A stretch of DNA of 64,000 nt from a virus, in IMG/VR virus record IMGVR_UViG_3300048672_000512, positions 64,001-128,000 of that record; one strand, given 5' to 3'. Below the pieces are notes generated by a model, which did no database searches, was not told where the DNA came from, and saw only the letters and a program-made list of their open reading frames with translations. Both the position numbers and the translations under genes were made by a program. Each line of letters starts with the position of its first letter. The stretch's first letter is position 1. Below are positions 24,312 through 41,090 of the stretch, in pieces.

Positions 24312-24320
24312 GTGCGTCCT

Positions 24321-25820
24321 TTAGATTGAAGAAACTACCCAGCCAGTTGTGTTATCCACCCAGGTGAATCTAACTGACTTTACAGTAGACACTGTAGCAC
24401 CACCGGTATCGCTATGAACCGTGCCAGTTACTACAAGATTCTTTGTAGTCCAAGTGCTTGCAGTGTCAGCTAACACTACGAATTCACTTCCGTCACCTAC
24501 AAAACCCGTTGTTACAGGAAGGATGACGTTTAGCGTAGCTGCAGATATAGCACTACTGTCAACCAGCACCATGTACCCTAGATGGGCTACTGTAAGCGTC
24601 AAGGTTGTGGTTGAGCTACCAATTGTAGGCGTAGGCGTGTACTTTGGAATAGCGGATGCCCGCGCCCACAGGCCGTCACCTTTAAGAACTCTATCCTGTT
24701 GACCCGCTGTTGGCTTCGGAACCGCACCACCGATACCGTCAAAACCAGAAGTTGCACCGGTAAACGCATAGACGTTCGATCCAAGCTGAACAATAGCCTG
24801 CGTCATCGAATACAGATTCACTGCATCACCAGGAGCTGTTGGATTGCCAACAGACGTCAATTTGTAGCTACCCATGCTCAGAGGAGCTTGCATCGTGCGC
24901 GAACCATCCAGCAGAACAGCTGCAGTTATGTCCGTGTTGAGAAGTTCATTTACATGAGCTGCTGTCAGGCTTGTATTGAGTCCAGCAAGAAAAGCTGCTG
25001 CGGTATCTGTCAGAATCCGTTTTCGGTAAACAACAAAGGTATCGTTGACGGATGGCGCAGAAGCTAGTGGGTTTACAAAGTTGAAACCCGTTGTGTCCGA
25101 AGTCAACGATGCAACCTGACGCAGCAAACCCGCCTTGCTACCAGATACAAACTGAAGTATGTATTCTCCAGTGTAGCTAGGTGCAGCGATAGAAAGCACA
25201 CCGCTAGTGCTCACAGAAGAACCTGTTGCAGAGGCTACTGTTCCGTTAAGGATAACTTCTTCATAGCCAGTTATAGACCACAGCGACTGGTTAGAAAAAG
25301 CAAGAACCGAACCTGTGCTGTCAGGGGAGAAGGTTATAAAGATGTTGGGTATCGCTGTTGCCGCCTGTGGAAGTGAGTCCACGCTCGGTTGTGATCCCAC
25401 CACCAAGCTGTTATCAGAGTTTCCAAGCTCTGAGTATATAGCCTGATTCGTGCCAGAAGTAGAAACATAGCACTCGATGACAAGTGCATTTGGATTCGTA
25501 CTTGACGAAGGGGACTTTATGATAGGCGTTGAATTCACACCTATAGCAAACAGCGAACTCGAAAGGAACAAGCCGCATTCACCAAATGTAAACGGACCAG
25601 CAGAGTAATCAACGACGACGGTGTACTTCAATACGTTTGCAGAAGACTGCACGTAGGCAGAAGTGGAACTGGAATAGACCACCGTTCCAACGAGGTTTGT
25701 AGCCGACGGGCTTGCAGTGTAAGCTCCAGACGTTCCAAGTTTAGCAGTTAGTGTTTCAGGAGGATTGCCCGGATTCGCCTGGAGGTAGCTGATGCCAAAG
25801 TCTGTAAGTATGAAGTACAT
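24321..25820 (-). CDS. Short tail fibre protein (499 aa), paralogue of the long fibre N-terminus
   Basis: MYFILTDFG..., YTVVVDYSAGPFTFGECGLF, YSELGNSD, SVDSLPQA align with the first ~340 aa of the long fibre. Confidence 0.8.
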   Translation of the reverse strand: MYFILTDFGISYLQANPGNPPETLTAKLGTSGAYTASPSATNLVGTVVYSSSTSAYVQSSANVLKYTVVVDYSAGPFTFGECGLFLSSSLFAIGVNSTPIIKSPSSSTNPNALVIECYVSTSGTNQAIYSELGNSDNSLVVGSQPSVDSLPQAATAIPNIFITFSPDSTGSVLAFSNQSLWSITGYEEVILNGTVASATGSSVSTSGVLSIAAPSYTGEYILQFVSGSKAGLLRQVASLTSDTTGFNFVNPLASAPSVNDTFVVYRKRILTDTAAAFLAGLNTSLTAAHVNELLNTDITAAVLLDGSRTMQAPLSMGSYKLTSVGNPTAPGDAVNLYSMTQAIVQLGSNVYAFTGATSGFDGIGGAVPKPTAGQQDRVLKGDGLWARASAIPKYTPTPTIGSSTTTLTLTVAHLGYMVLVDSSAISAATLNVILPVTTGFVGDGSEFVVLADTASTWTTKNLVVTGTVHSDTGGATVSTVKSVRFTWVDNTTGWVVSSI

Positions 25821-26236: not shown

Positions 26237-26803
26237 TTATTTAGGCCACACAAAGTAGTAATCGTTATCATCTTCGTCCATGCGAATGTATGACTCGGAA
26301 GCATCGTCGTACAGAAGCGGCATGCTTCCGGAGAAGTCTGCATAGACCTTCTTTCCACGTGAGTTCACCAAGTGAATCTCTTTGTGCTTGCGTGCTACGG
26401 AACACCAGTTGCGTACAGCCATTGATCCAATGTTGTCGCTTGAAGTAAGAAGCTTGTCTGCAGGTATGTACTTTCGTGCCTGCTCAAGAAGTGTTCTTCC
26501 GTATCCAAGATTGCGATACGCTAGCTTCACGTATATTGTTCCTACAGCGACTTTTTTAGGATCGCGCGTAGCAGAGATTCCTAGTATTGCGTGCACGTCC
26601 CATTCGTCGTCGGTTCCTTGCACGATAAATCCGTACTCAATACCGTGAAAGCCTGGCTTTGATATAGCACGGAACTGCTCTTGTCTATCCGCGTTCAGCA
26701 TGCTAGCAAGTTCAGTTCCGGACTTGAAGTTGACGTACACGCGGCGAGCATCAAATTCGTCCGCGTTTTCACCTTCCGCAATATGCATAGCTTCCGTACG
26801 CAT
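26237..26803 (-). CDS. GNAT-like acetyltransferase, copy A
   Basis: IYVKLAYRNLGYGRTLL acetyl-CoA motif A; paralogue of 27633-28205. Confidence 0.7.
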   Translation of the reverse strand: MRTEAMHIAEGENADEFDARRVYVNFKSGTELASMLNADRQEQFRAISKPGFHGIEYGFIVQGTDDEWDVHAILGISATRDPKKVAVGTIYVKLAYRNLGYGRTLLEQARKYIPADKLLTSSDNIGSMAVRNWCSVARKHKEIHLVNSRGKKVYADFSGSMPLLYDDASESYIRMDEDDNDYYFVWPK

Positions 26804-27610
26804 TTATACACCCCACAAAGACTGCATGTGTTTCACAACATCGTGATGGCTTGAGAGGCTTGCTTGGTCCTTGGTAGTTGCTACGCGCGCCTGTGTTGTG
26901 CTGCGCTCTGTGTAAGCCAGCTTGACGTCGCTGTGAGCAATAGCATAAGCGGGATCACGTACAACCGAGAACTCATAAGGTGATATCCCCTCTACTGTCT
27001 TGTAAACAAGCTTGCCATTCAGTTCGTAGAAGGTGACAGGAGAATTTGCATTCAGGTGTCGGCATTTACCTTCACGTGCACCGCAGTAACCACAGTTGAT
27101 GTGGTCTGCCATTGCACCCATCGAATAGGTATTGATTTCACCGACTTCAACCTGCTCTGCAAGTTCTGCATTCTTAGTACGGTCAATTGCAGCGAGAGCT
27201 AGCACCTTCCAGATATTCTTTCCAAAACCCTTGATAGGACGCATGGAAACATCGGCAACTACACCAAGAGCTTTTGTTATGTCGTCACTCTGATGCTCTT
27301 CGTACATAGGAGCATAGCGCCAGCCCTCGTAAGCTTGACACTTAAGATCTGGGTTCCACCGAGTCAACTCAAGATTTGGAAATGAATAGCCATTGCGATT
27401 GCTGAGCTGTGTCATAAGCAGCGGGGTAACAAACATGAAGTAATCTTTTGGATCACTTGACAGGTTCATCACCTTGCTCAGGAAGGGAAGCTTTGCCTCA
27501 AACCCGGTAGGTGCTTGCGTTACTACTTCGATGTCAAGCTCAGACGCTACATACGATTTACGTTTGTTAGGCGTGCGAGTCTGCAAGCTGGAAATAACTT
27601 TTGTACTCAT
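26804..27610 (-). CDS. Prohead (capsid maturation) protease, HK97/assemblin fold
   Basis: NRNGYSFP, PMYEEH (His), TYSMGA (Ser), CGYCG..CRH insert, YEFSVVRDPA. True start ATG 27610; the ORF-track extension overlaps the upstream gene. Confidence 0.75.
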   Translation of the reverse strand: MSTKVISSLQTRTPNKRKSYVASELDIEVVTQAPTGFEAKLPFLSKVMNLSSDPKDYFMFVTPLLMTQLSNRNGYSFPNLELTRWNPDLKCQAYEGWRYAPMYEEHQSDDITKALGVVADVSMRPIKGFGKNIWKVLALAAIDRTKNAELAEQVEVGEINTYSMGAMADHINCGYCGAREGKCRHLNANSPVTFYELNGKLVYKTVEGISPYEFSVVRDPAYAIAHSDVKLAYTERSTTQARVATTKDQASLSSHHDVVKHMQSLWGV

Positions 27611-27632
27611 GATATTCCTTGTATATACGTTT

Positions 27633-28205
27633 TCACTTAGGCCACACAAAGTAGTAAGGTGGTCCGTTTGGATCTTCGTCAAGTTCAAACGCGTTTCCGC
27701 TGTCTTCAATAACGGGCATGCTTCCAGAGAAGTCTGCGTCCACAGTTTCCTTGGAGTGACCCTGCACCATGTGTATGCTAGTGTGCTTTCGAGCTAGTGC
27801 ACACCAGTTGCGTACAGCCATTGTTCCTATCTCGCTACTGGAAGTAAGAAGCATATCATCTGGAAGCAGGCGCCTAGCCTCTTCGACAAGTTGCTTTCCT
27901 ATACCAGTGTTTCGGTACTTAGGGCTGACGTAAATTGCATCAGTACTGACGCAGCGCTTTGAACCAAGCTTTCCAAGATCACTCTTTCCAGTCTGCAGCA
28001 AGCCAACCAGTTCAGCCCCTTCCTTCAGTATAAGAAGCATCTTTTCGTTTCGAGTGTCGTACTCATGAAACCCAAAACGATACGTGAAGCTACCTTTGGT
28101 TTCGGTAGCTAGCTTGAATGCACTGCTGTTGTTAAGCAGATCCTTTACTTGAACAAGCGAGAGATTTTCACCTCTCGCTATTTCCATTGCTAACACTTTT
28201 CCCAT
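27633..28205 (-). CDS. GNAT-like acetyltransferase, copy B
   Basis: IYVSPKYRNTGIGKQLV motif A; shares MAVRNWC, DFSGSMP and YYFVWPK with copy A. Confidence 0.7.
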   Translation of the reverse strand: MGKVLAMEIARGENLSLVQVKDLLNNSSAFKLATETKGSFTYRFGFHEYDTRNEKMLLILKEGAELVGLLQTGKSDLGKLGSKRCVSTDAIYVSPKYRNTGIGKQLVEEARRLLPDDMLLTSSSEIGTMAVRNWCALARKHTSIHMVQGHSKETVDADFSGSMPVIEDSGNAFELDEDPNGPPYYFVWPK

Positions 28206-28220
28206 AGCGTGTGCCGGTTA

Positions 28221-30218
28221 TCAGAACCAGCCAAACCACTGCGGAGCTAGAATAGCAGGGGTTCGCGGCGGAACCGGGCGCGTTGCAGGCGTGATGCCGT
28301 TGGGAACAAGAACTTCTGGCTTGACAGGCAGATCAGGAACCAGATTCTCGCTAGCAGGCGTCATTGTTACTTCGGACTTCTTGGTAGGTATGACCTGTTT
28401 CCAGTAGTCAACTTTTGTTCCGGGAACTGCGTCTGGGCGCTTGTTTGTGTAGTAACCTTTCCACACTTCTGAACCGACTTCTGGCGAAGCAACATCAATA
28501 TCGAATCGACCTTGAAACGCTGCAATGAGTTCGTTAGGGTTCGGTGTCACTAGGCAAAGGCGATGCCCTGCAGGAACAAGTCCTAGAACGTTGATGATGT
28601 CTCGCATCAGTTCAGAAACAGTAGGGCTATCCATCTTTTCATAAATAACTCCGAACTTCCAAGTTGGCATGTTGTCTTTTACCAGCTTGGAAGTATCCTC
28701 CGTAGTTGTAAACCTCGGAACCGATGTTTCCGAAAGCTTCAGCTTAGGATTCACGTCAGGAGTAGGCGATGCGTTACGCCACCGTTCTGCTGGTGTGTCA
28801 ACATTCAGGTCAAATGCTAGACCTCTGTCTGTGCTGCGTTCTGTCCACTGGTCCTCATACGTTGTGTATGGATTTCCAATTTCCTCTGCATCCTGTTGAA
28901 GCTTCAACAGTTCCTTGCCAAGTTCGATATCAGGCTGCACACGCGGTTGACTCGGAAGAGGTTCGGTGTCACCAACACCAGAAGTTATATCAGCGTTGCT
29001 AGGGTCAAACGTACCTTTGTTGCCGGTAGCCGACTTGATCTGCTCAGGTTTCAATACTACAAAGTGATCTGCGTTTGCGTCACTCCGGAAAGGGTCGTCG
29101 TCCAGGTTACGTATAATGCACCCATCGTTACGGCTGCTCAGTTTTGTTTTGCGTAGGGTTTTGTTGATAGTGTCTTCTATATCAACAAACCTTTCGCCAG
29201 CTGCATCAAGCGTCACTGGACTCTGAATTCTTAGGTAGACTGGAATGACAGACTGTCCTGAACCTCTCTCGCTAGATAAGCGTGATTCTAGGTCTTCGGA
29301 CTGTTCTACATACTTATCATAAGCATCATAGTCGCCACGCTTTTCCGCTTGGTCTGCTAGCTGAAGTAGCCTCTCTACTGGAGCAGTTTCAGCTGCATAC
29401 TTTGCATAACTTGAGGCTACTTTTGGGTCTGACACAAAGAAAAACCCGTAAGCAGCAGATTTCACCCGAGTTGCTGTTCCTAGTTTGCTCAGCGTAAAAG
29501 CAGAAAAGTCTGACGCAGTACCGTGATAAAGAACAAGGGGTCGGCCCTTTGAGTCTACAGCTTTGCTATCGCCAAACCACTTTTTGAAGTTATTCAGATC
29601 GTTCTCTGTCTGAGCTATAGGCTGACCTAAGCTGTTCTGATTTCCAGGATAGCTTGACCCGATCTTTAGTTCAGCAACCTCTGTCTTGCCAATAACCGAG
29701 AACAGTAGCGTATGTCGAGTCACCTTGCCGTCTTTCGACTGACGAATCCAGCTAGGCTTATTTTCGCCTGCTTCGCTCATTCCAAGATAGGTCACAAAAC
29801 CATGACGCTTCAGAATGTTGATCAGAGCTTCGTTCAGAGTTCCAATGTCCAGCTTACGAATGATGCAGGCAAGTCCATACGTGTCTGCAATGCGTTTCAT
29901 TTCCTCAAGATAGTCATTTGTAAACCACAAAGGAATACGCTTGGACTTTCCTCCAACGTGAGGGCTTGCAATGCGATCTGGCGCAAGAGAAAGCAAACCT
30001 TCCTGCGTAAGAACAGCAGGGTAGTACATGCTGCTCTTTGTAGTAGGAGGGAATTCGTCAGATAGGCGATTGATAGCATCGCGCACTTGCCTTTGCAGCG
30101 CAGGCTTCTTAGCGACCTCATTAAGTGGGCGCCGTGAGTACCCAGGAGTTTGCAGCGTCTCCTTCAGTTCGTCACCCGAAGTTGGCGTTTGTAGTGGTGC
30201 GTATTTGTCCATATTCAA
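28221..30218 (-). CDS. Multidomain protein with central ADP-ribosyltransferase (ART-PolyVal-like) domain
   Basis: FKKWFGDSKAVD..GRPLVLYHGT, GFFFVSDPKVASSYA, VIPVYL, DGCII, FVVLKPEQIKSATGNKGTFDP; domain about 28990-29600; immediately downstream of the portal. Confidence 0.8.
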   Translation of the reverse strand: MNMDKYAPLQTPTSGDELKETLQTPGYSRRPLNEVAKKPALQRQVRDAINRLSDEFPPTTKSSMYYPAVLTQEGLLSLAPDRIASPHVGGKSKRIPLWFTNDYLEEMKRIADTYGLACIIRKLDIGTLNEALINILKRHGFVTYLGMSEAGENKPSWIRQSKDGKVTRHTLLFSVIGKTEVAELKIGSSYPGNQNSLGQPIAQTENDLNNFKKWFGDSKAVDSKGRPLVLYHGTASDFSAFTLSKLGTATRVKSAAYGFFFVSDPKVASSYAKYAAETAPVERLLQLADQAEKRGDYDAYDKYVEQSEDLESRLSSERGSGQSVIPVYLRIQSPVTLDAAGERFVDIEDTINKTLRKTKLSSRNDGCIIRNLDDDPFRSDANADHFVVLKPEQIKSATGNKGTFDPSNADITSGVGDTEPLPSQPRVQPDIELGKELLKLQQDAEEIGNPYTTYEDQWTERSTDRGLAFDLNVDTPAERWRNASPTPDVNPKLKLSETSVPRFTTTEDTSKLVKDNMPTWKFGVIYEKMDSPTVSELMRDIINVLGLVPAGHRLCLVTPNPNELIAAFQGRFDIDVASPEVGSEVWKGYYTNKRPDAVPGTKVDYWKQVIPTKKSEVTMTPASENLVPDLPVKPEVLVPNGITPATRPVPPRTPAILAPQWFGWF

Positions 30219-33200
30219 TCCATTGAAAAACGTCGAGTCTTGCGAGGGTCTTGAGGCTCAGTGGAGATTCCCATGTCGGCAGAAGCACCCATCTTCTCGC
30301 GCACTTCCTTGATTTTCTTAGCCTTGTACTCAGGATCAGCAAGTGCTCGCATAGCCTTGATGATGTGATCATTTGCTTTGCGAGAATCACGACCCGGGGT
30401 GAACGAGGCATGAACCTTGCCAGTCTTGCTCAGACGAGTATCGCTAGGAATGTTTCCAAAGTCTCGGTCTAGCAAGGGGACGCGCCGATGCATGCTGGTG
30501 GTACGTATCGGAAGATCTGCCATGTCGCGTCGAGCCTGCATGAACCTAGCTGTCTCTTGCGGGTTTGGTTCCTCTTGACCTTCTCCACCTTCGTTTTGAA
30601 TACCTTGCTGCAGAGCTGCTTCGTCAAAGCTGTTTTCGTCAAACTCGCCTTCACTGGAGTTGCCGATAGCTTCAGCCTTCTTGCCAGTGATGTCTTCGAT
30701 AGCTTCTCGAATCCGACGGTCTTCCTTCAGTTCCCGCAGAATGGTTGCAATGTCCTGACCTGCAGCACCCGCCCACATCTTCAGCGGAATGACAAAACCC
30801 TTTTCAGACATCTTTTCAAGCATGTCCCAGGTAGATTCTTCATCCTTGCCTGTAAGCGACTTGTGCCATTGAACCGACGGTATGCGCAGGTTTCGAGAGT
30901 TCTGCAGGTTGTGGAAGATGTCAGACGGAGAAGAAATCTTGCGCGCCTTCTTGACATCCTTGTACTGATTGTTAAGAACAGCAATCAGCGGAAAGAACTT
31001 TGAAGTGAACACCTTGTAGGTGATAAGCTGGCGATACGCCTCCATGTTCTCCATGAACACGGTAATGGCAGCCTCGGCAGTATTATGAACCACGAGTCCG
31101 TTTGCTACAAAAGCAGGTTCGGTTCCGGGCTTCATTGAAATATCGTACACGTGCTCCTTTCCGGCAGCGATAACGGAAACAACTTCCGAGTACCTATATT
31201 GATACTTCAACAGAGAAGTCAACTCTCGGTATTTTACCAAGCTCAATTTCTTCAGAAACTCAAGGAAGTTATCGTATTTGCCTTCAGCGTAGAACTTATA
31301 GTTAAACCTGCGCAGCTCCTTGGTATTAAATCCCCAGCTCTTATCATTGCAAGAATGACATACAACTTCGCCAGTGTCAGAAAGAAAGTAGGCACCGTGC
31401 CGGTCAAACTTCAGACGTCGCTCTTCTATAAATGAAGTCCAGTAGGTACAAGGAAGGCCGTCGTTCTTTGAATACTTACCACCAGCCGCATGACTGCTCT
31501 TTATAGACAAGTAGACATGCGCTGTTGACCAGAAGTCTTCTGAGTCTTCTCTGCTAAGGGACAGAACAGTGCCTGCATTCTGTGTTGTTGGCTGATAACC
31601 GTGAGAGTTCAACATAGCTTGAAGCTGTTGAATAAGAGTACAAGACACGCTTATCCAGCTAGTTCCCCTAGCTAAGGAACCGTCACACTCTGCGTACCCG
31701 GCTAGAAACGCTTTTTGACTCTCTTCGTCTGCTTGCAGAACAGACCACGGCACCTGCTTAAAGTAAGAAGGTGTTTTTCCGTTTACGCGCCCCGGCTTTA
31801 CGTACACACCAATGTCACGCAGCCAGTCAATAAGTGCCCTGTTTCGCACTCCAGTGCTAAGAATGCTACGATTTGTGCGAATACGCCTAGCAGGCTCTGC
31901 ATTTATTTGACTTGCCGACTTCTCAGTTATTTCTCGGAAGTCCACATCGAATATATCTTTTGCCAAGAAGACAAAACGATTTACTAGCTCCGGATCCGAG
32001 TTTGAAAAGAACAGTTGCTGTGCAAGACCTGGTTCATCAGAATACGAGTCTGTAAAAGCTACGTTACCTTCACTGATGAATAGGGCTAACCAGTAAGCAA
32101 GTTCTGGTGTCATATGTGTAGGAACTGTCATATGACCTGGCTTAAAGTCCACCCGTGACCCAGGAGACATACCTACTCGATTTCCTAGTTTATTAGTCTT
32201 TGTTGCGTCATAGGCGCGCGGCTTTCTAGGTACTGGCAGCGGAACATTAAGCTTAAGTGGAGTTTTGCGCGTTACCTTGTTTCGACTGATACACAACAAG
32301 TCTCCAACCTTTATTTCATCAGCGCGCTTCCATGTTGTTTTTCCACCGTCAAGAACTAACAGTGGGTGATTTCCAGTTGCCTGAACACAGTTTCCGGTAG
32401 CCGCAGTTACGCGAAGCGTTTCTTGATAGCCATTGTAAACCCAGGCTACAGCCTTAGCTTTGCCGAATCTAGAGTCCATGTCTGCGTTTATGCTAAACGC
32501 ACGCTTGAATTCCTTTCCACTACCTAGTGAGTCTATGCGCACTAGACCCTTTGTAGTAGGTATTAGCGTATTACCAGCAAGACAAGCATAGCTAGCGTCT
32601 CCGGATAAAAATGCTTCAGAGATACCTAGACCTCGAAGTTTCATCGGAACAAGTTGTTCAGCAACATCTGTCCATTTCCAGAAGTCACCTCCGGGCCTTA
32701 TCTCGTTGACCTGAACACCGTCACGAGTAATGATCCAGGCTCCAAGCGTATCCAGTTCCGTGCGCTGAAATTCAGCAAGCATTGTAGCAAGCTCACCGTC
32801 AGACGGAATCCAGTTTTCGTTACCCGCCATGATGTGCGAAGTGGATCGTTGACGCTTGTGAGCTTCAACAAGCGTGCCGCGAAACATCACTTTTTCAAAC
32901 AGATAGAACGGCAAGAGGCGCTTGAGATAAGAAACATGAGTCCTATCTCTAAGCGCCTTTCGTGGAATGTAGATTGTAGTAAGCGGATCCAGCACCGCAG
33001 TGCCAGCAGCGTACGTGTCTATCAGCGCCCGTGGATAGCTTTCCATCAGACGATCAAGATACGGACTTCCAGCGTTCATGAACTGCGACAGCTGCGAAGC
33101 CGAGTTCATCTTTACAACAGGGTCAAGAGAATGAAACGGTTGAGGTGAAATGCTTGCGTTTGCAACGTCATGCAGCATGACATCCTGAAATACCTTTGCT

Positions 33201-33652
33201 TCAGCATTGTAGATCATCGTGCCAATAAAGGCGCCGTCCACAAGGTAGGCATTTGATATTTCCTGCATCAAGGACCGAATGTTGATGCGTGAGAGGTTTT
33301 CACCGAACAGATCCAGTTCCTTGTTCTCAAGGCCGGCTAGCGTGAAGTCTGAAAAAGGAAAGCTGGAAGACATGTCAACAGCGGAACCAGCAATAGGATC
33401 CATGTAGTACATGTCACGGTAGTACTGAAGCAGAAACTGCTCGTTGTACTCCGGAATGATACCAGTGAGAAGCGTGTTGTATGATGGCGCACCAAACACT
33501 GCAGTGCTCATAGGAGTACCACCAGACGGGGTGATCCAGTTAGCAGTAACGTCCTTCTTTGATGCTGCTTTCACCTGAACACCTGAAGACTTTACAGCAG
33601 TGTTTCTGAACTGAGTCAGGTCTGCGGTGGAAGAGAGTCGCGTTTTCAACAT
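30215..33652 (-). CDS. Portal protein (about 644 aa after splicing) containing an intein
   Basis: YYRDMYYMDPIAGSAVD..., LGISEAFLSGDASYA|TAEAAITV portal-type pattern; position between terminase and protease. Confidence 0.75.
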   Translation of the reverse strand: MLKTRLSSTADLTQFRNTAVKSSGVQVKAASKKDVTANWITPSGGTPMSTAVFGAPSYNTLLTGIIPEYNEQFLLQYYRDMYYMDPIAGSAVDMSSSFPFSDFTLAGLENKELDLFGENLSRINIRSLMQEISNAYLVDGAFIGTMIYNAEAKVFQDVMLHDVANASISPQPFHSLDPVVKMNSASQLSQFMNAGSPYLDRLMESYPRALIDTYAAGTAVLDPLTTIYIPRKALRDRTHVSYLKRLLPFYLFEKVMFRGTLVEAHKRQRSTSHIMAGNENWIPSDGELATMLAEFQRTELDTLGAWIITRDGVQVNEIRPGGDFWKWTDVAEQLVPMKLRGLGISEAFLSGDASYACLAGNTLIPTTKGLVRIDSLGSGKEFKRAFSINADMDSRFGKAKAVAWVYNGYQETLRVTAATGNCVQATGNHPLLVLDGGKTTWKRADEIKVGDLLCISRNKVTRKTPLKLNVPLPVPRKPRAYDATKTNKLGNRVGMSPGSRVDFKPGHMTVPTHMTPELAYWLALFISEGNVAFTDSYSDEPGLAQQLFFSNSDPELVNRFVFLAKDIFDVDFREITEKSASQINAEPARRIRTNRSILSTGVRNRALIDWLRDIGVYVKPGRVNGKTPSYFKQVPWSVLQADEESQKAFLAGYAECDGSLARGTSWISVSCTLIQQLQAMLNSHGYQPTTQNAGTVLSLSREDSEDFWSTAHVYLSIKSSHAAGGKYSKNDGLPCTYWTSFIEERRLKFDRHGAYFLSDTGEVVCHSCNDKSWGFNTKELRRFNYKFYAEGKYDNFLEFLKKLSLVKYRELTSLLKYQYRYSEVVSVIAAGKEHVYDISMKPGTEPAFVANGLVVHNTAEAAITVFMENMEAYRQLITYKVFTSKFFPLIAVLNNQYKDVKKARKISSPSDIFHNLQNSRNLRIPSVQWHKSLTGKDEESTWDMLEKMSEKGFVIPLKMWAGAAGQDIATILRELKEDRRIREAIEDITGKKAEAIGNSSEGEFDENSFDEAALQQGIQNEGGEGQEEPNPQETARFMQARRDMADLPIRTTSMHRRVPLLDRDFGNIPSDTRLSKTGKVHASFTPGRDSRKANDHIIKAMRALADPEYKAKKIKEVREKMGASADMGISTEPQDPRKTRRFSMD
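31082..32584 (-). mobile_element. Intein (501 aa) with LAGLIDADG homing endonuclease in the portal gene
   Basis: Starts CLAGNTLI, block B ATGNHPL, ends FVANGLVVHN followed by Thr; LALFISEG and LAGYAECDG motifs. Confidence 0.92.
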
Positions 33653-34089
33653 TTTGTATTTTCTACTGGTTGGGAGGTGATTGCTACGCTATGAATGCTG
33701 CCTTGCATGAACCTGATCAGAACGTCAGTGCGTATCATTGATGCTGGCTGGTTCACATCTATGCGTACGTAGTGAAGAGCTTCAACTGTTGCTTTCTTCA
33801 AAAACAGACGCTGCTTGGTGCACTCCTCGTGTATGGCCTTCACAAGATTTTCCACGTCTACGCTATCACTATCTACCGCGTTCATAGTAGTAGTCGCCAT
33901 GCATGTGGTGTACGACTTTGGGTTGAAAGCGGCAAACCGATAGTGAACTCCGTTTGCATGTAGAACCCTGCGCAGAGGATACTGAACTGCGTCTCTGTAC
34001 CTTGCTGCACATGACAACAAAGCTGGTGTCTCGATTACCACTTTCAAGCCTTTCTTACTTTGAGTACTGCGGATACCACTTCTTAGCAA
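33646..34089 (-). CDS. Hypothetical protein (start possibly TTG 34047)
   Basis: Fills the gap upstream of the portal. Confidence 0.65.
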   Translation of the reverse strand: MLRSGIRSTQSKKGLKVVIETPALLSCAARYRDAVQYPLRRVLHANGVHYRFAAFNPKSYTTCMATTTMNAVDSDSVDVENLVKAIHEECTKQRLFLKKATVEALHYVRIDVNQPASMIRTDVLIRFMQGSIHSVAITSQPVENTKC

Positions 34090-35170
34090 GGTAATCCAAG
34101 AGCTGCTCTATAGTCCACTTGTGCTTGCGAAGAATAGTCATCAGGTTGTCTAGATTCTCGCGCTCTTTTGTTGGCATACCGTAAGGGTCGCTCTTTGCAT
34201 TATGCATGTCGTTCTTGACACCAGTCAGAACGTCTTTCCTGTAATAGTCGTTACGCGCCCAGTCGTACAACCTATCGTACAGGTATTCAATAGAGCGGAA
34301 GTTTCCAGAAGAAGAATGCTTCTTCACAATAGCGCTACGCAGGTTCCCGGCTTCTACAGAGTCTCCAGTAGCAGACTCAGGAAGGCGCATAGCATAAAGC
34401 GCTAGCAATCCGACAAGGCTTCCTGTCTTATGCGTTCGCATGAAGTCGTAGGCCCTTGGCGGAGTCTTTTCTTCTGGCACCTTGACTATAAGGTTCGTGT
34501 AGTAAGAGAGCGGGTAGTTTCTACCTTCTGACGCCTTTGAATTTCTCAGAGCAGCCGCGCTATCAAACACAAGAAACGGTATGCCTGCTTTGACGCACAG
34601 CTTCTTCATCTGAAGTTGCTGCTTCAGCGTTTTCAACGTTTCTCGGTAGATGTACTTAAGATGCGTAGGAATGTCATCTTCACTGCCATGAAACGCAGGA
34701 TTGTTAATGATCTTCTTGTACTTCTCAAGACCTTCGCTTGAAATACCCTGAGCATAAATTGCGGTTATGTAGCTGGAAGCCTTCTTGATCACCGGACTAT
34801 CAGAAAGAATGCGGTCTTCTGCTTCAAAGTTTTGAAACTCTTCACCTTTATTCTGCCAGTAATCAACAGGTTTTGCTGCGTAGCGCTCATTCAGTTTGCG
34901 ACCGTTGAGCTTCAATACTGCGTAGTAGCCGTAGTCTGTTTTGTAGACATACGAACTCGTCATCGTACGCGCTGTACTCAGATAGTATTTCCCTTTGGAA
35001 ATGGTTTCTTCGTACTCAGAGCCGTCAGCTGGCTTTAGATGAAACTGATCCGTTGCAAGGATCTGCGCTGCTGCTCGCAAGCTTGTTAGGTGAAACAGAA
35101 CGTCTGTAGCTGCCGCCTTCAGGTTGAGGCTACCAGTTGACGTCCTTGCTTCAAGTATCTGTATAGCCAT
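34055..35170 (-). CDS. Divergent ADP-ribosyltransferase-fold protein (H-S-E type)
   Basis: LFHLTS, YYLSTAR and FEAEDR fall in the order of the three ART catalytic strands. Confidence 0.5.
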   Translation of the reverse strand: MAIQILEARTSTGSLNLKAAATDVLFHLTSLRAAAQILATDQFHLKPADGSEYEETISKGKYYLSTARTMTSSYVYKTDYGYYAVLKLNGRKLNERYAAKPVDYWQNKGEEFQNFEAEDRILSDSPVIKKASSYITAIYAQGISSEGLEKYKKIINNPAFHGSEDDIPTHLKYIYRETLKTLKQQLQMKKLCVKAGIPFLVFDSAAALRNSKASEGRNYPLSYYTNLIVKVPEEKTPPRAYDFMRTHKTGSLVGLLALYAMRLPESATGDSVEAGNLRSAIVKKHSSSGNFRSIEYLYDRLYDWARNDYYRKDVLTGVKNDMHNAKSDPYGMPTKERENLDNLMTILRKHKWTIEQLLDYLAKKWYPQYSK

Positions 35171-35173
35171 CTA

Positions 35174-35848
35174 TTATCCTATGGAAGTAACAAAGTAAGG
35201 GTCTACAATGACTGGAGTCGAGCCGCGTTCTGCAACCGTAATATGGTTCAGAGAAAGAATAGTACGCTGAGGTGCTATGCGTACGATCTGGCAGACAGTT
35301 CGTATGAACGCACTGTACTTCATTGCGTCCTCATGCGAAACCTCTTCGCAGTTGGACAGACGAGCAAGCTCTTGCAGAAAGCGTTGCACATTAGTAGCTG
35401 CTTTCTTGAGTTCCTGCATTGCATGAAGTTGACCAACGCGGTCCCCAGGAAGTGCCGATGTCAGATCAAAGCCGTGAAGTTCCAGAAACTTAGCCAGTGG
35501 ATCCATAGCAGGAATCTTCTTCAGACGTTCAGCATAGACTTGCGTCATGTAAATCCCGTCTGTTGTGCCTGAAGTGACGTCCAGAATCTTCAGAACGTTC
35601 GGCCCCATGTGCTGTTGGCAGAACTTCATCCAGGCTAGATGCACCTTATGCGCAGGAGACATTTCGCTTCGCCCTTCAGCAAACAGCACATACGTGTATT
35701 TGTGGTCTGGCGAGATGAAAGTGGAAGTGTTGATGCCGTGATACAGAAGAAGGAAACCCTTCTGTTTCAGACGCATTAGAATACGCTTCTGTGTAGCCTC
35801 AGGCACCAGAGGGTGCTGAACTGGAAGTGCTGTTACTGATTGAGTCAT
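35174..35848 (-). CDS. Protein kinase-fold protein, probable pseudokinase
   Basis: Paralogue of 35853-36536 (shared RGSTPVIVDP) but catalytic loop reads SLNHITV. Confidence 0.6.
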   Translation of the reverse strand: MTQSVTALPVQHPLVPEATQKRILMRLKQKGFLLLYHGINTSTFISPDHKYTYVLFAEGRSEMSPAHKVHLAWMKFCQQHMGPNVLKILDVTSGTTDGIYMTQVYAERLKKIPAMDPLAKFLELHGFDLTSALPGDRVGQLHAMQELKKAATNVQRFLQELARLSNCEEVSHEDAMKYSAFIRTVCQIVRIAPQRTILSLNHITVAERGSTPVIVDPYFVTSIG

Positions 35849-35852
35849 ATTA

Positions 35853-36536
35853 TCACCGATGTTTTACAGCCGTGTACCACGGATCAACGATAACTGGAGT
35901 TGATCCACGCAGCATCACGTTCAGGGAATGAAGATCTATAACACTGGAATGCGGGCACTTTTTGATAACTTCAAGTACCACTTCAAAGAATGGCAGAAGA
36001 GACTGCGGTATCTCGTAGTCAGCGTCTACTTCACCGTCAGTAGCTTCGTTCATAGCAGAAGCAATACCTTCAGCAGTCTTGACATTACGCAGCTTGTCCA
36101 TCGCAGCATACTGCCATTCACGATCACCGTAGCGAACCTCGGGTAGATTCAGAGCTAGTTCACTAAGTGCTTTTGATACAGGATGCATTCTACCTAGAGG
36201 TTGCAGAAGTTCTGCATGCACTTGAATCATGGAAGCATCTTGAAAGCTTCCGTCCTGCATGTCATAAGCGTACATGACGTAGTCGCTACGGCTACGAGAC
36301 ATGCACTCATGAAGCCACTGCAAATGAACCTTGCGCTTCTCAGCATGCGCTGGAACACTATCAAGAAAGAGAATAAGTGCGCTGCTACCGTCAGGTGTCT
36401 TGTAGACAGACTTGTCGTTGCCATCACCTAGCAACGAGTAGCCTTGCTCTTGAAGATACTTGCGAATAGCAGACGTTACACTCTTTGGAAGAAGCGGCGT
36501 GTTGATCGGAAGAGCGGTAACTTGTGTTTGTTTCAT
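35853..36536 (-). CDS. T7 gp0.7-like Ser/Thr protein kinase-fold protein
   Basis: LLGDGNDKSVY Gly loop; IDLHSLNVMLRGSTPVIVDP catalytic and Mg-binding segment. Confidence 0.7.
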   Translation of the reverse strand: MKQTQVTALPINTPLLPKSVTSAIRKYLQEQGYSLLGDGNDKSVYKTPDGSSALILFLDSVPAHAEKRKVHLQWLHECMSRSRSDYVMYAYDMQDGSFQDASMIQVHAELLQPLGRMHPVSKALSELALNLPEVRYGDREWQYAAMDKLRNVKTAEGIASAMNEATDGEVDADYEIPQSLLPFFEVVLEVIKKCPHSSVIDLHSLNVMLRGSTPVIVDPWYTAVKHR

Positions 36537-36757
36537 GCTTCGTCCTCAGGTTTAGGTAGAACCGTGCGGTCATCCCAACACACAAAGACGTTCTGATTGG
36601 CGCAGATCGTTGTCTGCATAGGCTTCTTGCAATATGGGCAAACGCCAGGCGTGTCGTTAGTCATGCCTGCAGTTACCTTCTTTTCGCTTGCAGACGCCGT
36701 AAGCTTTGCGCCCAGATAGGCACCAAAAGCCTTGTCAATATAGGTTTTTTCTAGCAT
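36533..36757 (-). CDS. Small Zn-ribbon protein
   Basis: CPYC...C...CWDD; start ATG 36757. Confidence 0.65.
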   Translation of the reverse strand: MLEKTYIDKAFGAYLGAKLTASASEKKVTAGMTNDTPGVCPYCKKPMQTTICANQNVFVCWDDRTVLPKPEDEA

Positions 36758-36787
36758 GTTTCTTCTCTGTGAGAGTTTCCGTTTACG

Positions 36788-36828
36788 AAACAAAAATGGG
36801 CGGCCGCACAATTAAGTACGCCGCCCAT
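36788..36828 (-). terminator. Intrinsic terminator after the terminase/MazG-like unit
   Basis: On the - strand: atgggcgg...ccgcccat followed by ttttgttt. Confidence 0.7.
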
Positions 36829-36840
36829 TCATGGAAGTTG

Positions 36841-37386
36841 TCAGACCAGAGGGTCCAAACCTCGCTTTTTACGCCAGTTAACAACCGAGTCATCACCCTC
36901 CGTTGCTAGGCGACACGCCATTGCAGCTACCTGAACTGCTTCTTTTCGCACGCTAGCTTTTGGTTCATCTAGAACTGCTTTTACCAGTTCACCCGATTCT
37001 TCAGAAAAGGCTAGCGTAGTGATTTCAGTGTCTGGAAACTTTGCTCGTGCTTTAGCTATTTCGGCTGCAACCTCCTGCATAAATCTGCGATCTTCTACAG
37101 TCAAGTCAAAGTTAGAGTTGAGTGCTTCTTCTGCGTTTGCCCACGCTAGAGTAGCCTTCAATGCTTCTTCGTAGCATGGATTTTTATCACTGACGATAAC
37201 GTACTTGCGGGCGGGTTTTCCGCGTAGCTGACGTCTACTCTCTACAGCTGACAGAATTTGAAACAGCTGCTTAATTTCTTCAGTAGCTATGTCGCCGGCC
37301 TCATAAGCCATCTGCAAGTCCCGGCGTTTTACCACCAAGTAGCGAGCATCCAATTTATCAATCTTTTCCATGATGTGTCCTTTCAA
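36841..37386 (-). CDS. Fusion protein with C-terminal MazG-like NTP pyrophosphatase domain
   Basis: LAFSEESGELVKAV...VRKEAVQVAAMACR (EExxE...ExxQ). Confidence 0.6.
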   Translation of the reverse strand: MKGHIMEKIDKLDARYLVVKRRDLQMAYEAGDIATEEIKQLFQILSAVESRRQLRGKPARKYVIVSDKNPCYEEALKATLAWANAEEALNSNFDLTVEDRRFMQEVAAEIAKARAKFPDTEITTLAFSEESGELVKAVLDEPKASVRKEAVQVAAMACRLATEGDDSVVNWRKKRGLDPLV

Positions 37387-40300
37387 CGGTTGTGAGAGTT
37401 GTAATGCTGCATAGCTGGTGACCGGAAGCCACTTAGCACTATGCCGCGTGTCACTTTCTTCTGATCGTCTGTTCCTTCTCCGGAACCAATGGTAGCAAAC
37501 TTGGTTGTGTATTCATGCAGCTTCGGATTGAAAGCTAGTATGTACAAAACGGTAAGCGCGCGTAGCATGTCATCTGTATAGCCTTCTCCTTTGGTGAGAA
37601 CTCCCATCACGTATTTCACAGTCATGAACTGCAAAAGCAAGTGGTCAATCGGCTTGCCAACAAAGTCTTTCTTGAAGTTCTGTGACAGCATCACTTCCTC
37701 GGGAGTCATGGAAAGCATTGGCAGGTCTAGGCTACCGTTGTCTACAGCAGTTTCAAAGTACGGAAAGTGCTTAGGTTGCAACGACAGTTGAAGCGTCTTC
37801 ACTTTGTTAGCCGTATCCTCTGTCAGCTGCTGAAGCATGTCAATGCTGTTCCATCTGTCGGCACCGACGATTACAACGTTGCAGTCTTTCACCATTGGCA
37901 GAATTACATGTTTGTACAGGTACGGGAAGTTTATCTTGGTCCCAGGCCGAGCGACAACTTCAAGAATAGACGTTACGACAAGCGTGCTAGCTTTTCTGTA
38001 ACCCAGAGCTAGAGCAAAAGCGTTGTTTGTGAGCCCTGCGTCCAGAGACAGAATGTGCGGCTCCCATACAGACTTTGTTCCTTCCTTGAGGAAGTGGGCT
38101 AGCGTTCTGCCAAGATTTTTTTCATCAGCATCATAGACGATTCGATGTTCGTTCCTTCTATCATTGGAGAACAGACCTACAACCTGTTGAGAAGTGAAGG
38201 TTGCTGCACTCAGCACCGGCGGGTTTGCTCCAAAGTCGCGCTCTGCCTTTTCTGGATTCTTTGCGTACGCAGACTTGATAGTAGCCGAATCTCTTGGCAT
38301 GAACGGGTTGATGTCCCAAGTAGGCAGCTGCAAACCAAGCATCATTGCATCCGGATTCTTCGCCTCTTCAAGCAACCGGCACATCTTGTCCTTCTTGGAC
38401 ATTGGAGACGAGATAGCTAGATTGAGAGCCATTGGAATGGTGTTGATACCTTTCCTGTACAGGTGACTGACTTCTTCTCGCACCGTCATTAGCGAGTTCT
38501 CAAGCGACTGCCACACTTCGTCTGCATTTGCATGCTCGCGTTCTTCATCTTCTTCCATTTCGTCAGAAGCAGTGTTGACGATAGGAAAGATACCGATCTC
38601 TTCAACTGAAGACAGGGCGCGTGTGTTATGAGAAGTCAACCCGTTAGCATAGAATGCGTGCCCATCTGGAACAGTAACGTCAAACACTGTGACTTTACCT
38701 GTTTGTTTCACTACAGAAGTAACCCTTTCAAAGTGCGGCTGCAGTTTGTAAAGCGTCCTCAAGCCGCTAGCAAATTCTGGATGCATTTTAGCTAAAAACT
38801 CAAGTACGTCTGGACGCTCATAAGCTAGAAACTCAGGAACTCTTCCATCAATCGTGTTACCGCGAATTTTAGACTTTGGTCTTGAGTTCTTTATGAGGCG
38901 CATTGGCGCTGGTCGTACCAACTTCTCCCCGTCAGGAGAAACGAAGTATTTGGACCTAGGAGGTGCCGAATACCAAAGGTTTAGAACCACGCGTCTCAAG
39001 TAAGGGACAGCGCGTCGGTCTGAAGCATAACCAGGAGGTGCACTCTTTATACGATCCTTGAACCTATTGACTTTTGCTCGTTTGAATGTCTCAGAAAACA
39101 AATAGGCATCGTGGCCCGTAAGCGTTAACAGCCATGTTGTGTAGTGCTTAGGTGCATTCTGCTTGTTGCGCCCCATAGACTTAAACTCTACAGACTTGTG
39201 TACACGTCCTACTAAACCGTAGACTTGAAGCAGTATAGTCTGAAGTTGACGTATGAGTTTTTCACTAGCTGATGCTAGTTCAACTTCCACTCCAGTGTCA
39301 GTGCCACGTAGCTTAGCTTTCTTTGTAGGTCCACCGTTTATGTGTCCGTCGCACGCAAAATATGCCTCTAAGTATTCATGAAGAACCTCCCTAGGTGCTG
39401 TACGCACACTAGTTGGTATTTGCTTTTCTGCAGATAGACAGTTTGTGTAGCCCCAGGATTCAAGAACTTTGGTAAAGCTAGAGTTGTTCGGGCTAGGTTT
39501 GTCGTTAACAAAGACACCGTAGGACGCAACACTGATGTTCTTAACATCCTCGCCACGTGCTCGGATATGATAGCCAAGACGTGAAGCAGCTTTCGTAAAC
39601 CTGCTCACCACCGCTGGATCGCCTGAAGTTATTTCGTTTCTGTACCCATTTGCCGTAAACGTGCCAAGTATCGTTGCCTGATCGATTGTCAGTTCGTTGC
39701 TGCCAAACATAGGTCTAGACCTGTTAGTTCTAGATACTATGTAATCACCCTCTTTGATAGAGTCTGCACGCACCCATGCAAAGGACAAATCCGGACGCAT
39801 TACAAGCATCGGATGCTCAGGTGTACACCCTATCTTTATTCCGTTCAACGTCGTTATCTCAAATATGCTACGACTAGCTTTAGCATATACGTGAGACACA
39901 TCCTTTGTACCAGTAAGGGAATCCACTTTCAACTTTGACGGTGTCAGACCTAGTGGTATGTTCAGTTCATCAAAGTGCAGGAAACCATCTGACGTGTTTA
40001 TCATCACGTCGCCCGTCAAGCAGTCTCCCCGAAGTTGGCGCTTTAACGGACCCAGAGGATACAAGTCTATGTTCTTGTGCAGGAATCTTGTTCCAAGAAC
40101 GCCGGTTTTCAGCAGTTCAATTCCATACTTTACTTGGTTGAACTTCAACATAGCGTAGTAGTCTTTGTACCACTGCGAGTTGTTCAGCAAGTCTCTTACT
40201 GGATTCCAAGAAAGACGAATAGCTCGCGCGGCAGACAAACCCACAAACGTGTACGTAAGTGGCGTGAAGTCCTGAATACCACGACAGATAGTGCTCAGCT

Positions 40301-41090
40301 TCGGAGCCTTTAGCAGGCAGTGCAAGTGATAAGTGGAAACCGTTGTAGCTACACTGGTCTTACCACTACGCTGACCCCAACACATTGCAATGCTATTGTA
40401 TGGAACCAAGTCACCATGCAAAATCAATTCAGACTTTGATGTTCCGCACTTTGGGCACTTTCCGTTTTCAAGGAGAATCAGACGCTTGACAAGATCCTTT
40501 ATCTCCATGTCTACCGGTATGTTGTAGATGTCCGAGTACCACTTTGGCTTTGTGCACTTTGGACAATACTCAGCTAAGCCGAGAACCATAGACCACAGCT
40601 GCCGAGCAAACGGTATCTTGACAGACTTCCCTGCAATATCAGTGCAGTAGTGCAGATAGTTCTTGGCACGAGGAAGATCGCGATCGTCTATCTTTAGATC
40701 TCGAATTGTTTTGGTGTCCTCGTCATAAGCCTCGCTCATAGCGTCGAGAATGAAGTTGCCGTCTGCACCACCAAGCTCTTGATTCAGCTCTTCGTCTGTG
40801 AGGCTTTCAATGTCGTCCTCTTCGATGTCCCACAGTGAAGACTTTTTCTTCTTTGCTTTAGCTTCTGGTTTCTGCTTGACAGGAGGTTTCGCTGCTGCAG
40901 TCTTTGGCTTTAGAAGCTCTACTGTTCTAGGCTCAACCTCGATACCAAAAGAAAAGGCTTCCTGCATGGACCCTACTTCCTTCAGACGTGAGAACTTGTC
41001 GCAGTAGTGACCGGAAACCGTCTTGAGTTTATCTCGGCAAGTCAGATACTTTGAGCAGGTCAAGCAGGAGCTTTTCTTTAGGTTAGCCAT
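37383..41090 (-). CDS. terL: Terminase large subunit (about 769 aa after splicing) containing an intein
   Basis: WGQRSGKT Walker A; LRGD|TRALSSVEEIG Walker B region (EE variant); LSLDAG and DDMLRA RNase H nuclease motifs; N-terminal Cys clusters. Confidence 0.88.
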   Translation of the reverse strand: MANLKKSSCLTCSKYLTCRDKLKTVSGHYCDKFSRLKEVGSMQEAFSFGIEVEPRTVELLKPKTAAAKPPVKQKPEAKAKKKKSSLWDIEEDDIESLTDEELNQELGGADGNFILDAMSEAYDEDTKTIRDLKIDDRDLPRAKNYLHYCTDIAGKSVKIPFARQLWSMVLGLAEYCPKCTKPKWYSDIYNIPVDMEIKDLVKRLILLENGKCPKCGTSKSELILHGDLVPYNSIAMCWGQRSGKTSVATTVSTYHLHCLLKAPKLSTICRGIQDFTPLTYTFVGLSAARAIRLSWNPVRDLLNNSQWYKDYYAMLKFNQVKYGIELLKTGVLGTRFLHKNIDLYPLGPLKRQLRGDCLTGDVMINTSDGFLHFDELNIPLGLTPSKLKVDSLTGTKDVSHVYAKASRSIFEITTLNGIKIGCTPEHPMLVMRPDLSFAWVRADSIKEGDYIVSRTNRSRPMFGSNELTIDQATILGTFTANGYRNEITSGDPAVVSRFTKAASRLGYHIRARGEDVKNISVASYGVFVNDKPSPNNSSFTKVLESWGYTNCLSAEKQIPTSVRTAPREVLHEYLEAYFACDGHINGGPTKKAKLRGTDTGVEVELASASEKLIRQLQTILLQVYGLVGRVHKSVEFKSMGRNKQNAPKHYTTWLLTLTGHDAYLFSETFKRAKVNRFKDRIKSAPPGYASDRRAVPYLRRVVLNLWYSAPPRSKYFVSPDGEKLVRPAPMRLIKNSRPKSKIRGNTIDGRVPEFLAYERPDVLEFLAKMHPEFASGLRTLYKLQPHFERVTSVVKQTGKVTVFDVTVPDGHAFYANGLTSHNTRALSSVEEIGIFPIVNTASDEMEEDEEREHANADEVWQSLENSLMTVREEVSHLYRKGINTIPMALNLAISSPMSKKDKMCRLLEEAKNPDAMMLGLQLPTWDINPFMPRDSATIKSAYAKNPEKAERDFGANPPVLSAATFTSQQVVGLFSNDRRNEHRIVYDADEKNLGRTLAHFLKEGTKSVWEPHILSLDAGLTNNAFALALGYRKASTLVVTSILEVVARPGTKINFPYLYKHVILPMVKDCNVVIVGADRWNSIDMLQQLTEDTANKVKTLQLSLQPKHFPYFETAVDNGSLDLPMLSMTPEEVMLSQNFKKDFVGKPIDHLLLQFMTVKYVMGVLTKGEGYTDDMLRALTVLYILAFNPKLHEYTTKFATIGSGEGTDDQKKVTRGIVLSGFRSPAMQHYNSHNR
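38625..40022 (-). mobile_element. Intein (466 aa) with LAGLIDADG-type domain in terL
   Basis: Starts CLTGDVMI, block B CTPEHPM, ends FYANGLTSHN followed by Thr; LGTFTANG and LEAYFACDG motifs. Confidence 0.92.

Follow-up and report, generated by a model that had tools for sequence, protein, structure and literature searches.

Predicted host-modifying enzymes encoded among the head genes of a phiRSL1/PaBG-like jumbo myophage, one of them joined to a putative capsid carrier

Why are genes for two kinase-like proteins, two ADP-ribosyltransferases (ARTs) and two GNAT acetyltransferases placed among the terminase, portal and prohead protease genes of a large phage, and would any of their products travel in the virion? 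The locus concerned lies in a 64,000-nucleotide stretch (the window), which covers bases 64001-128000 of the 178-kb IMG/VR virus record IMGVR_UViG_3300048672_000512 (estimated completeness of the record, 75%). We favour, with a probability of roughly 0.6, the reading that an accessory island of polyvalent-type host-modifying enzymes was inserted in the core cluster of a phiRSL1/PaBG-like jumbo myophage, and that one of the enzymes, an ART-PolyVal protein, is carried by a moiety shared with the small protein that its nearest relatives encode between portal and protease (the slot protein). The locus is a dissociated polyvalent-protein repertoire. This class was described in 2017 by Iyer, Burroughs, Anand, de Souza and Aravind, who reported ART, kinase and GNAT domains in predicted virion-packaged polyvalent proteins (PMC5512222); the earlier proposal that the island is an undescribed system is therefore not supported. 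Three things are new: the fusion with a slot protein specific to the lineage, a widespread family of predicted DarT/Tpt1-like ARTs without a Pfam match, and the link between this family and T7-kinase-like domains. No concept is changed by them; the polyvalent-protein picture is extended.

The six enzyme genes are given below in the order of transcription.

35853..36536, minus strand: T7-gp0.7-like minimal kinase, 227 residues (AlphaFold2 (AF2) model, PDB matches, hhalign)
35174..35848, minus strand: paralogous pseudokinase, 224 residues (alignment with the 227-residue kinase)
34055..35170, minus strand: ART-fold protein, 371 residues (AF2, VIA-align, Foldseek, family alignment)
28221..30218, minus strand: ART-PolyVal protein, 665 residues (PF18760, E 2.4e-22, 80.6 bits against a cut-off of 31.2)
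27633..28205, minus strand: first GNAT, 190 residues, GNAT190 (PF00583, 34.6 bits)
26237..26803, minus strand: second GNAT, 188 residues, GNAT188 (PF00583, 24.4 bits; paralogue of the first)

In profile scans, every copy of the four enzyme families in the 178-kb record (six genes) fell within 10.5 kb. A previous reading made from the sequence only had listed the genes of the locus, and all the listed identities and their order were recovered with open reading frames (ORFs), Pfam, PHROG, AF2 and hhalign. Its calls of ART, GNAT and kinase folds were upheld throughout by Pfam, by AF2 models with PDB searches, or by hhalign. The three chemistries it had named (phosphorylation, ADP-ribosylation and acetylation) were all present, with the catalytic motifs largely intact, and the duplication it had pointed out was confirmed: the GNATs are 41% identical, the kinase and its paralogue 29% identical (E 5e-33), and the two ARTs are different. 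The domains are also those typical of phage polyvalent proteins, for which packaging and injection are predicted in the literature (PMC5512222).

The ART-PolyVal protein, the slot protein and the GNATs

The 665-residue protein consists of three parts, an N-domain (~1-190), the ART-PolyVal domain (~190-415) and a C-domain (~415-665). The PF18760 match spanned model positions 1-140 and was repeated on a whole-genome scan; besides ART-PolyVal, the protein gave no Pfam match at E<=0.01, and a PDB sequence search with it gave nothing meaningful. ART-PolyVal active sites have a His, a Tyr and an Asp on strands 1, 2 and 5, respectively (PMC5512222). In the profile alignment, the His of YHGT, the Tyr of SSYAK and the Asp of DGCII were kept in conserved columns, as judged by inspection; the Atlas model is poor (predicted local distance difference test score (pLDDT), 0.51).

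For comparison, 65 viral contigs were gathered by a related protease and scanned with profiles of each part of the locus; a single protease sequence used as the query for related viral loci had retrieved nothing, and the kinase alignment gave no usable pattern for such a query. The nearest of the 65 are contigs L011 and L012, whose proteases are 63% and 59% identical to that of the window; the protease of L007, a Logan contig, is 89% identical. In L011 and L012 a slot gene (197 and 297 residues) lies right after the portal gene, and the C-terminal 150-190 residues of the 665-residue protein matched the products of these genes (phmmer, 2e-17 and 5e-13; alignment). The matched part takes in a Pro-rich tail, at whose end stands a conserved motif, PQ-aromatic-W. 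The 665-residue gene likewise follows the portal directly, with its start at 30218 or 30212 and the portal end at 30215.

L007 encodes a full-length relative that is 62% identical and has the same layout of N-domain, ART-PolyVal and C-domain; the flanking domains are ~80% conserved between the two, and the ART core has diverged. A jackhmmer search among the relatives' loci found the N-domain solely here and in L007. It was considered that the C-terminal WFGWF might be what is left of a second, deleted ART domain; this was rejected, because the same terminus is kept in the 62%-identical relative. We do not claim the slot family for the whole phage group, since no homology to the C-domain was detected in the slot proteins of the more distant relatives L013, L016, L019, L025, L045 and GR7B.

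Other phages join ART-PolyVal to MuF, MuF_C or Mu-type portal domains (P0078, P0053 and a MuF_C cluster of the Atlas). Effector fusions to MuF (SPP1 gp7/Mu gp30) were described by Jamet et al. in 2017 (PMC5576092). They resemble the island protein in that an enzyme or toxin domain is joined to a minor head-module protein whose gene directly follows that of the portal; in P0078 it is the same ART-PolyVal domain that is joined to MuF. The effector is C-terminal in the MuF fusions, whereas the island enzyme is N-terminal to a putative, uncharacterised carrier in which PF04233 was not detected. The 665-residue protein has one recognised effector domain and two uncharacterised domains, and the remaining island enzymes are solo genes. 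Taken together, these comparisons make packaging of the ART-PolyVal protein, and by association of the GNATs, plausible; the slot-protein fusion is the best sign of capsid loading, a hint that concerns the 665-residue protein alone among the enzymes.

Both GNATs scored above the PF00583 cut-off of 20.7 bits and contain the acetyl-CoA loop R/Q-x-x-G-x-G/A (RNTGIG and RNLGYG). In L007, the gene after that for the ART protein encodes two ART-PolyVal domains and then a GNAT (Pfam). GNAT190 was 60% identical to residues 436-621 of this ART-ART-GNAT protein, and the alignment began exactly at the repeated linker; by this alignment, GNAT190 is a domain that has become detached from an ART-ART-GNAT protein. 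The L007 orthologue of GNAT188 (6134-6700) is located after the ART-ART-GNAT gene and upstream of the protease gene, whereas GNAT188 itself is downstream of it. Within one Atlas viral protein cluster, ART-PolyVal occurs in 79% and GNAT in 45% of the members, and this GNAT typically neighbours ART in polyvalent proteins of gammaproteobacterial phages (PMC5512222). The fusion in L007, the Atlas cluster and the neighbourhood reported in 2017 therefore suggest that the GNATs belong functionally with the ART-PolyVal module.

The core cluster and the inserted genes

The order on the minus strand is terL (with an intein), a 181-residue gene, the Zn-ribbon gene, the kinase, its paralogue, the 371-residue ART, a small ORF, the portal (with an intein), the 665-residue ART-PolyVal gene, a GNAT, the protease and a GNAT. 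The sequence-only reading was right in what it listed and omitted the 181-residue gene between terL and the Zn-ribbon. The genes other than the enzymes are as follows.

37383..41090, minus strand: large terminase terL plus intein with LAGLIDADG endonuclease (phrog_17415, 2.9e-157; PF14890, PF14528); core gene and upstream border of the island
36841..37386, minus strand: 181-residue gene, matching only PHROGs of unknown function
36533..36811, minus strand: Zn-ribbon, 92-residue ORF (CxxC...C...C; phrog_13972); the start is probably M19 at 36757, which gives 74 residues
33646..34089, minus strand: small ORF preceding the portal, probably ~84 residues from an internal Met
30215..33652, minus strand: portal plus intein with LAGLIDADG endonuclease (phrog_16240, 1.2e-145; PF14890); core gene
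26804..27709, minus strand: prohead maturation protease (phrog_18299, 2.6e-57), with the real start probably at a Met near 27610; core gene

The portal and the protease were 35-45% identical to their counterparts in phiRSL1, PaBG, BcepSauron, Motura and Lu11 (~40% for the portals of phiRSL1, PaBG and others), and the same range was obtained with the Xanthomonas PhiXhv phages, the P. putida Voja-6 group, and the Dickeya JA and Erwinia jumbo phages; homologues of the protease occur in 95 phage records. These identities therefore place the phage in a jumbo myophage group, which is subgroup 2.2 of Iyer et al. A megablast search of 50,697 phage records found no nucleotide-level relative of the region, and tblastn against phages with the GNAT and with the kinase gave no match.

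The locus of L011 and L012 comprises terL, the Zn-ribbon gene, a ~130-residue gene, the portal, the slot gene and the protease, and profile scans found none of the enzymes in these two contigs. Elsewhere in the group the interval is variable: the protease directly follows the portal in PhiXhv-16, unrelated genes separate the two in Voja-6 and GR7B, and the portal is distant from the protease in phiRSL1 and PaBG. With a bare core in the nearest relatives and variable gaps in the others, the enzymes are therefore regarded as lineage-specific insertions at variable points of the cluster. On this comparison of gene content they are an accessory insertion by which no head gene would have been replaced. 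The proposal that they occupy slots normally held by core head genes did not hold, in that the corresponding positions of the relatives are empty or contain one small conserved protein.

In ~20 relatives, including phiRSL1 (ORF214), PhiXhv-16, Voja-6 and GR7B, a homologue of the Zn-ribbon protein is encoded in the interval from terL to portal, in most cases immediately ahead of the portal. Judged from these homologues, the Zn-ribbon gene is a conserved core gene outside the enzyme set and no part of a protein-modification arsenal. Relatives of the 181-residue gene (jackhmmer) and of the small ORF before the portal (jackhmmer and profile scan) were not found in the relatives' loci. A ligase and a glycosyltransferase are also present among head genes in this phage group (Dickeya JA phages).

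The 371-residue ART and its kinase neighbours

The 371-residue protein was predicted to contain an N-terminal ART-fold domain (~20-215) and a C-terminal helical domain of ~150 residues (AF2, pLDDT 83). Neither its sequence nor the profile of its family (ART371) gave a Pfam, NCBIfam or PDB sequence match, with only noise in NCBIfam. An alignment of 31 family sequences, from proteins of ~300 residues, contained invariant H27, Y62, S65, E116, E118 and R120. In the model, H27 is located in the strand 24-30 (strand 1), Y62 and S65 in the strand 62-67 (strand 2), and E116 and E118 at the start of the strand 118-123 (strand 5).

When the model was compared by VIA-align, the Z-score was 9.9 for yeast Tpt1 and 9.2 and 9.0 for DarT; all seven chains with Z>=8 were Tpt1/KptA or DarT, and more than 25 ART toxins and PARPs came next in the ranking. 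The top Foldseek matches were likewise DarT and Tpt1 (probability 0.97-0.99, E ~1e-2). As far as the model indicates, the likeness to DarT and Tpt1 is structural only. These best matches (Z 8-10 over 113-151 residues) share with the N-terminal domain a His on strand 1 followed by a helix, whereas the 371-residue protein differs by its E-x-E motif and its additional helical domain, and is phage-encoded without a DarG-like partner. The Arg-His-Arg-Arg tetrad of Tpt1 is probably not present in it.

The 227-residue protein was predicted to have a protein-kinase fold (AF2, pLDDT 89), to which 126 PDB kinase chains matched at E<=1e-3; a PDB sequence search with the kinase gave nothing meaningful. 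An exhaustive profile search yielded 173 distant relatives, from which 44 members were drawn for a family alignment (a word-indexed search gave one). When this alignment was compared with T7 gp0.7 by hhalign, the probability was 96.5% (E 8.9e-10, 153 columns), and Atlas clusters carried PF27024 in part. The family is marked by a Gly-loop, a VLKIF strand, DLHxxN and VIVDPW. The 227-residue kinase keeps the Gly-loop, D201 and N206 of the catalytic loop, and D218 of the DPW motif; these three residues are conserved in 43, 43 and all of the 44 members, respectively. It ends ~9 residues past the DPW motif and has no C-terminal shut-off/DNA-binding domain. The 224-residue paralogue has lost G37, D201, N206 and the beta3 Lys, with Ser, Thr and Asp at the positions of D201, N206 and D218 and Leu at beta3, and is the sole member of the 44 without both the catalytic-loop Asp and Asn. 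The pairing of a kinase with a pseudokinase, as previously proposed, was thus borne out by the way D201 and N206 are divided between the copies, but the supposedly active copy has Ile in place of the beta3 Lys.

T7 gp0.7, which had been offered as a precedent, shares with the island kinase a homologous core, the DLHxxN catalytic loop and a DP-type motif in place of DFG. There are differences as well: T7 gp0.7 has the shut-off/DNA-binding domain and is encoded in the early region, whereas the island kinase is minimal, is accompanied by a dead paralogue and is encoded between terL and portal. Moreover, the T7 kinase is an early cytoplasmic enzyme with a broad anti-defence action and not a virion protein, and jumbo-phage T7K homologues without the shut-off domain have been reported with their role left open (PMC13645617). 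The trio of kinase, pseudokinase and ART is a concrete place to look for that role.

One pattern scan yielded 121 viral relatives of ART371, and 80 loci were kept for the analysis of gene neighbourhoods. A kinase-family domain was present in 6 of the 80 loci, within ~1.2 kb in five of them. Three of these kinase domains are located inside proteins of 782-1754 residues with ParB_N, a Pol-beta nucleotidyltransferase, or an amidoligase and a deaminase. The occurrence of kinase domains near ART371, in polyvalent architectures, therefore suggests that the pair is a recurrent module tied to the polyvalent network. In other loci, a DNA polymerase and a homing endonuclease are among the neighbours of the pair, and head genes are not. 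A conserved third partner was considered and rejected for the genes that intervene between kinase and ART in those loci. ART371 genes adjoin the protease gene in L013 and L083 and are ~6 kb from it in the Dickeya JA phages. ART371 is of interest as a widespread Pfam-unmatched ART-fold family, a recurrent neighbour of T7-kinase-like domains, whose nearest structures act on nucleic acids.

Several further observations were made on this family. In unrelated viral contigs, giant proteins of the polyvalent type are encoded beside ART371 genes (L120:3455-8716, L121:2230-8901 and L109:10049-12652) and combine a T7-kinase-like domain with an amidoligase, a dCMP deaminase, DUF6934, ParB_N or a Pol-beta nucleotidyltransferase. 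One ORF (L090:19906-20970) matched both the ART371 (2e-6) and the ART-PolyVal (4e-14) profiles and may be a bridge or a fusion. The 141-kb genome of Alishewanella phage vB_AspM_Slickus01 (OQ508957.1) gave five tblastn matches to the N-terminal domain of ART371, which points to a marked expansion.

Packaging and its alternatives

In the favoured reading, the slot-protein moiety would carry the ART-PolyVal enzyme into the prohead; delivered along with the DNA, the enzyme would ADP-ribosylate targets in the host before any phage gene is expressed, and the GNATs would probably act on the same pathway. The kinase/pseudokinase and the 371-residue ART would serve as a pair in host takeover or counter-defence, in the manner of the T7 kinase, either injected or made in the cell after entry, and the 371-residue ART may target nucleic acid.

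The closest described parallel is that of the polyvalent proteins, which have in common with the island the polyvalent-clade ART, a Ser/Thr-type kinase and GNATs, a GNAT beside ART in proteobacterial (pro)phages, a phage of the portal/terminase type, a predicted role in early infection, and solo domains near the main locus (PMC5512222). Packaging is a prediction in both. A polyvalent protein is one giant polypeptide, whereas the island is mostly split into small separate genes; the kinase described in 2017 belongs to a truncated clade, whereas that of the island belongs to the T7-gp0.7-like minimal family; and the ART-PolyVal of the island is joined to the lineage-specific slot protein encoded between portal and protease. 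Another parallel is T4 Alt, likewise an ART encoded by a large myophage and proposed to reach the host together with the phage DNA. T4 Alt is of the R-S-E type; its gene lies apart from those of the head, and the protein is loaded by way of the prohead core. Neither island ART belongs to its clade, one having, by inspection, the H-Y-D pattern (ART-PolyVal) and the other having H / Y-x-x-S-T / E-x-E and a predicted DarT/Tpt1-like structure. To our knowledge, head-packaged effectors beyond T4 Alt, the P1 Dar proteins and the N4 virion RNA polymerase are almost entirely predictions. The locus is a compact, testable case of such effectors, with relatives that have the carrier alone as natural controls.

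Several findings weigh against this reading. Packaging of every island protein is a prediction from sequence. A Pfam scan found neither a MuF domain (PF04233) nor a known capsid-targeting signal; the profile of the uncharacterised slot family gave nothing meaningful, and no solved relative, among PDB sequences; and the link of the family to phiRSL1 ORF209 was weak (phmmer E 1.6e-4; hhalign probability 24%). The ART-ART-GNAT protein of L007 has no slot domain, so that the carrier idea leaves its delivery unexplained. The kinase lacks the beta3 lysine (I55) that is present in 36 of the 44 relatives, and its predicted activity is uncertain. The kinase/ART pair of L121 adjoins a DNA polymerase and not head genes. 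DnaB, another helicase and a clamp are encoded upstream of terL in the same minus-strand block, and a scan for promoters and terminators gave counts at or below those of shuffled sequences, so that transcription units could not be drawn.

The broader alternative, close to what the sequence-only reading had proposed, holds that the six enzymes are all late products, that they enter the prohead and may be trimmed by the protease, and that they are then injected jointly, a ready-made arsenal to disarm host defences before transcription starts. The tight, co-directional arrangement between terL, portal and protease, with stops and starts that overlap or abut, is consistent with it, as are the clustering of all copies of the four families, domain types that match polyvalent proteins predicted to be packaged, the kinase-family domains inside polyvalent-type giants beside ART371, and the proximity of ART371 genes to the protease in L013, L083 and the Dickeya JA phages. 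Against this, a plausible carrier was found in the ART-PolyVal protein only, and the kinases, ART371 and the GNATs are small, have a single domain each and show no N-terminal signal in common. The T7 kinase is expressed early and unpackaged, the kinase/ART pair sits by replication genes in other phages, and position predicts little where a ligase and a glycosyltransferase also occur among head genes. Late expression was part of the earlier proposal, but position by itself does not establish it: the block runs in transcription order from baseplate/tail genes through helicases and clamp, DnaB, terL and the island region to tail-fibre-like genes. It is thus more than an operon of late head genes, and neither a major capsid gene nor a scaffold gene adjoins the island region. 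Published virion data bear little on the matter: PaBG proteomics lists 14 abundant proteins only, and the Dickeya JA phage paper gives no proteome. We therefore consider loading of the whole set unlikely. Of the earlier claim of capsid loading, what remains plausible is the part that concerns ART-PolyVal, with its fusion to the slot family and the MuF and portal fusions elsewhere; it does not extend to the kinase and the 371-residue ART, which have no carrier domain.

At the opposite end, nothing would be packaged: the interval would be an insertion hot spot of very high variability, to which the homing endonucleases of the terL and portal inteins may contribute, the enzymes would be ordinary intracellular takeover or anti-defence genes, and the slot fusion would have no delivery role. 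The content of the terL-portal-protease interval differs in nearly every relative examined, the nearest relatives lack the enzymes, and the order of GNAT and protease differs between this phage and L007, all of which would be expected of a hot spot. LAGLIDADG inteins are present in both flanking genes; portal ORFs of more than 1000 residues, suggesting inteins, were observed in at least seven related contigs (L011, L020, L022, L043, L049, L072 and L074), and from these lengths portal inteins seem to be common in this phage group. What speaks for a delivery role is that the ART is placed in frame ahead of a conserved head-module protein, that this arrangement is kept at 62% identity with flanks more conserved than the ART core, and that fusions of ART-PolyVal to MuF or portal domains recur in other phages. 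A locus without any packaging therefore appears improbable to us.

Beyond the favoured reading, one may speculate that the slot protein is a new MuF-like cargo carrier for N-terminally fused enzymes, that the solo enzymes are co-loaded and injected as a multi-chemistry counter-defence set, and that the kinase and the new ART form a two-enzyme module conserved across many phages, but we regard this combination as doubtful.

Some minor features of the neighbouring genes were also observed. The C-terminal half of the 181-residue protein contains an EExGE-like motif reminiscent of MazG-type pyrophosphohydrolases. The prohead protease family, which gave no Pfam match, has an invariant Cys/His cluster (CxxCG...CxH) near the C-terminal half, suggesting a zinc site, which would be unusual for an assemblin-type protease. 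Downstream of the second GNAT (20463-25820), proteins of 499 and 1282 residues gave weak matches to the N-terminal tail-collar fibre domain, and the order of this pair is kept in L007, where the proteins have 539 and 1291 residues.

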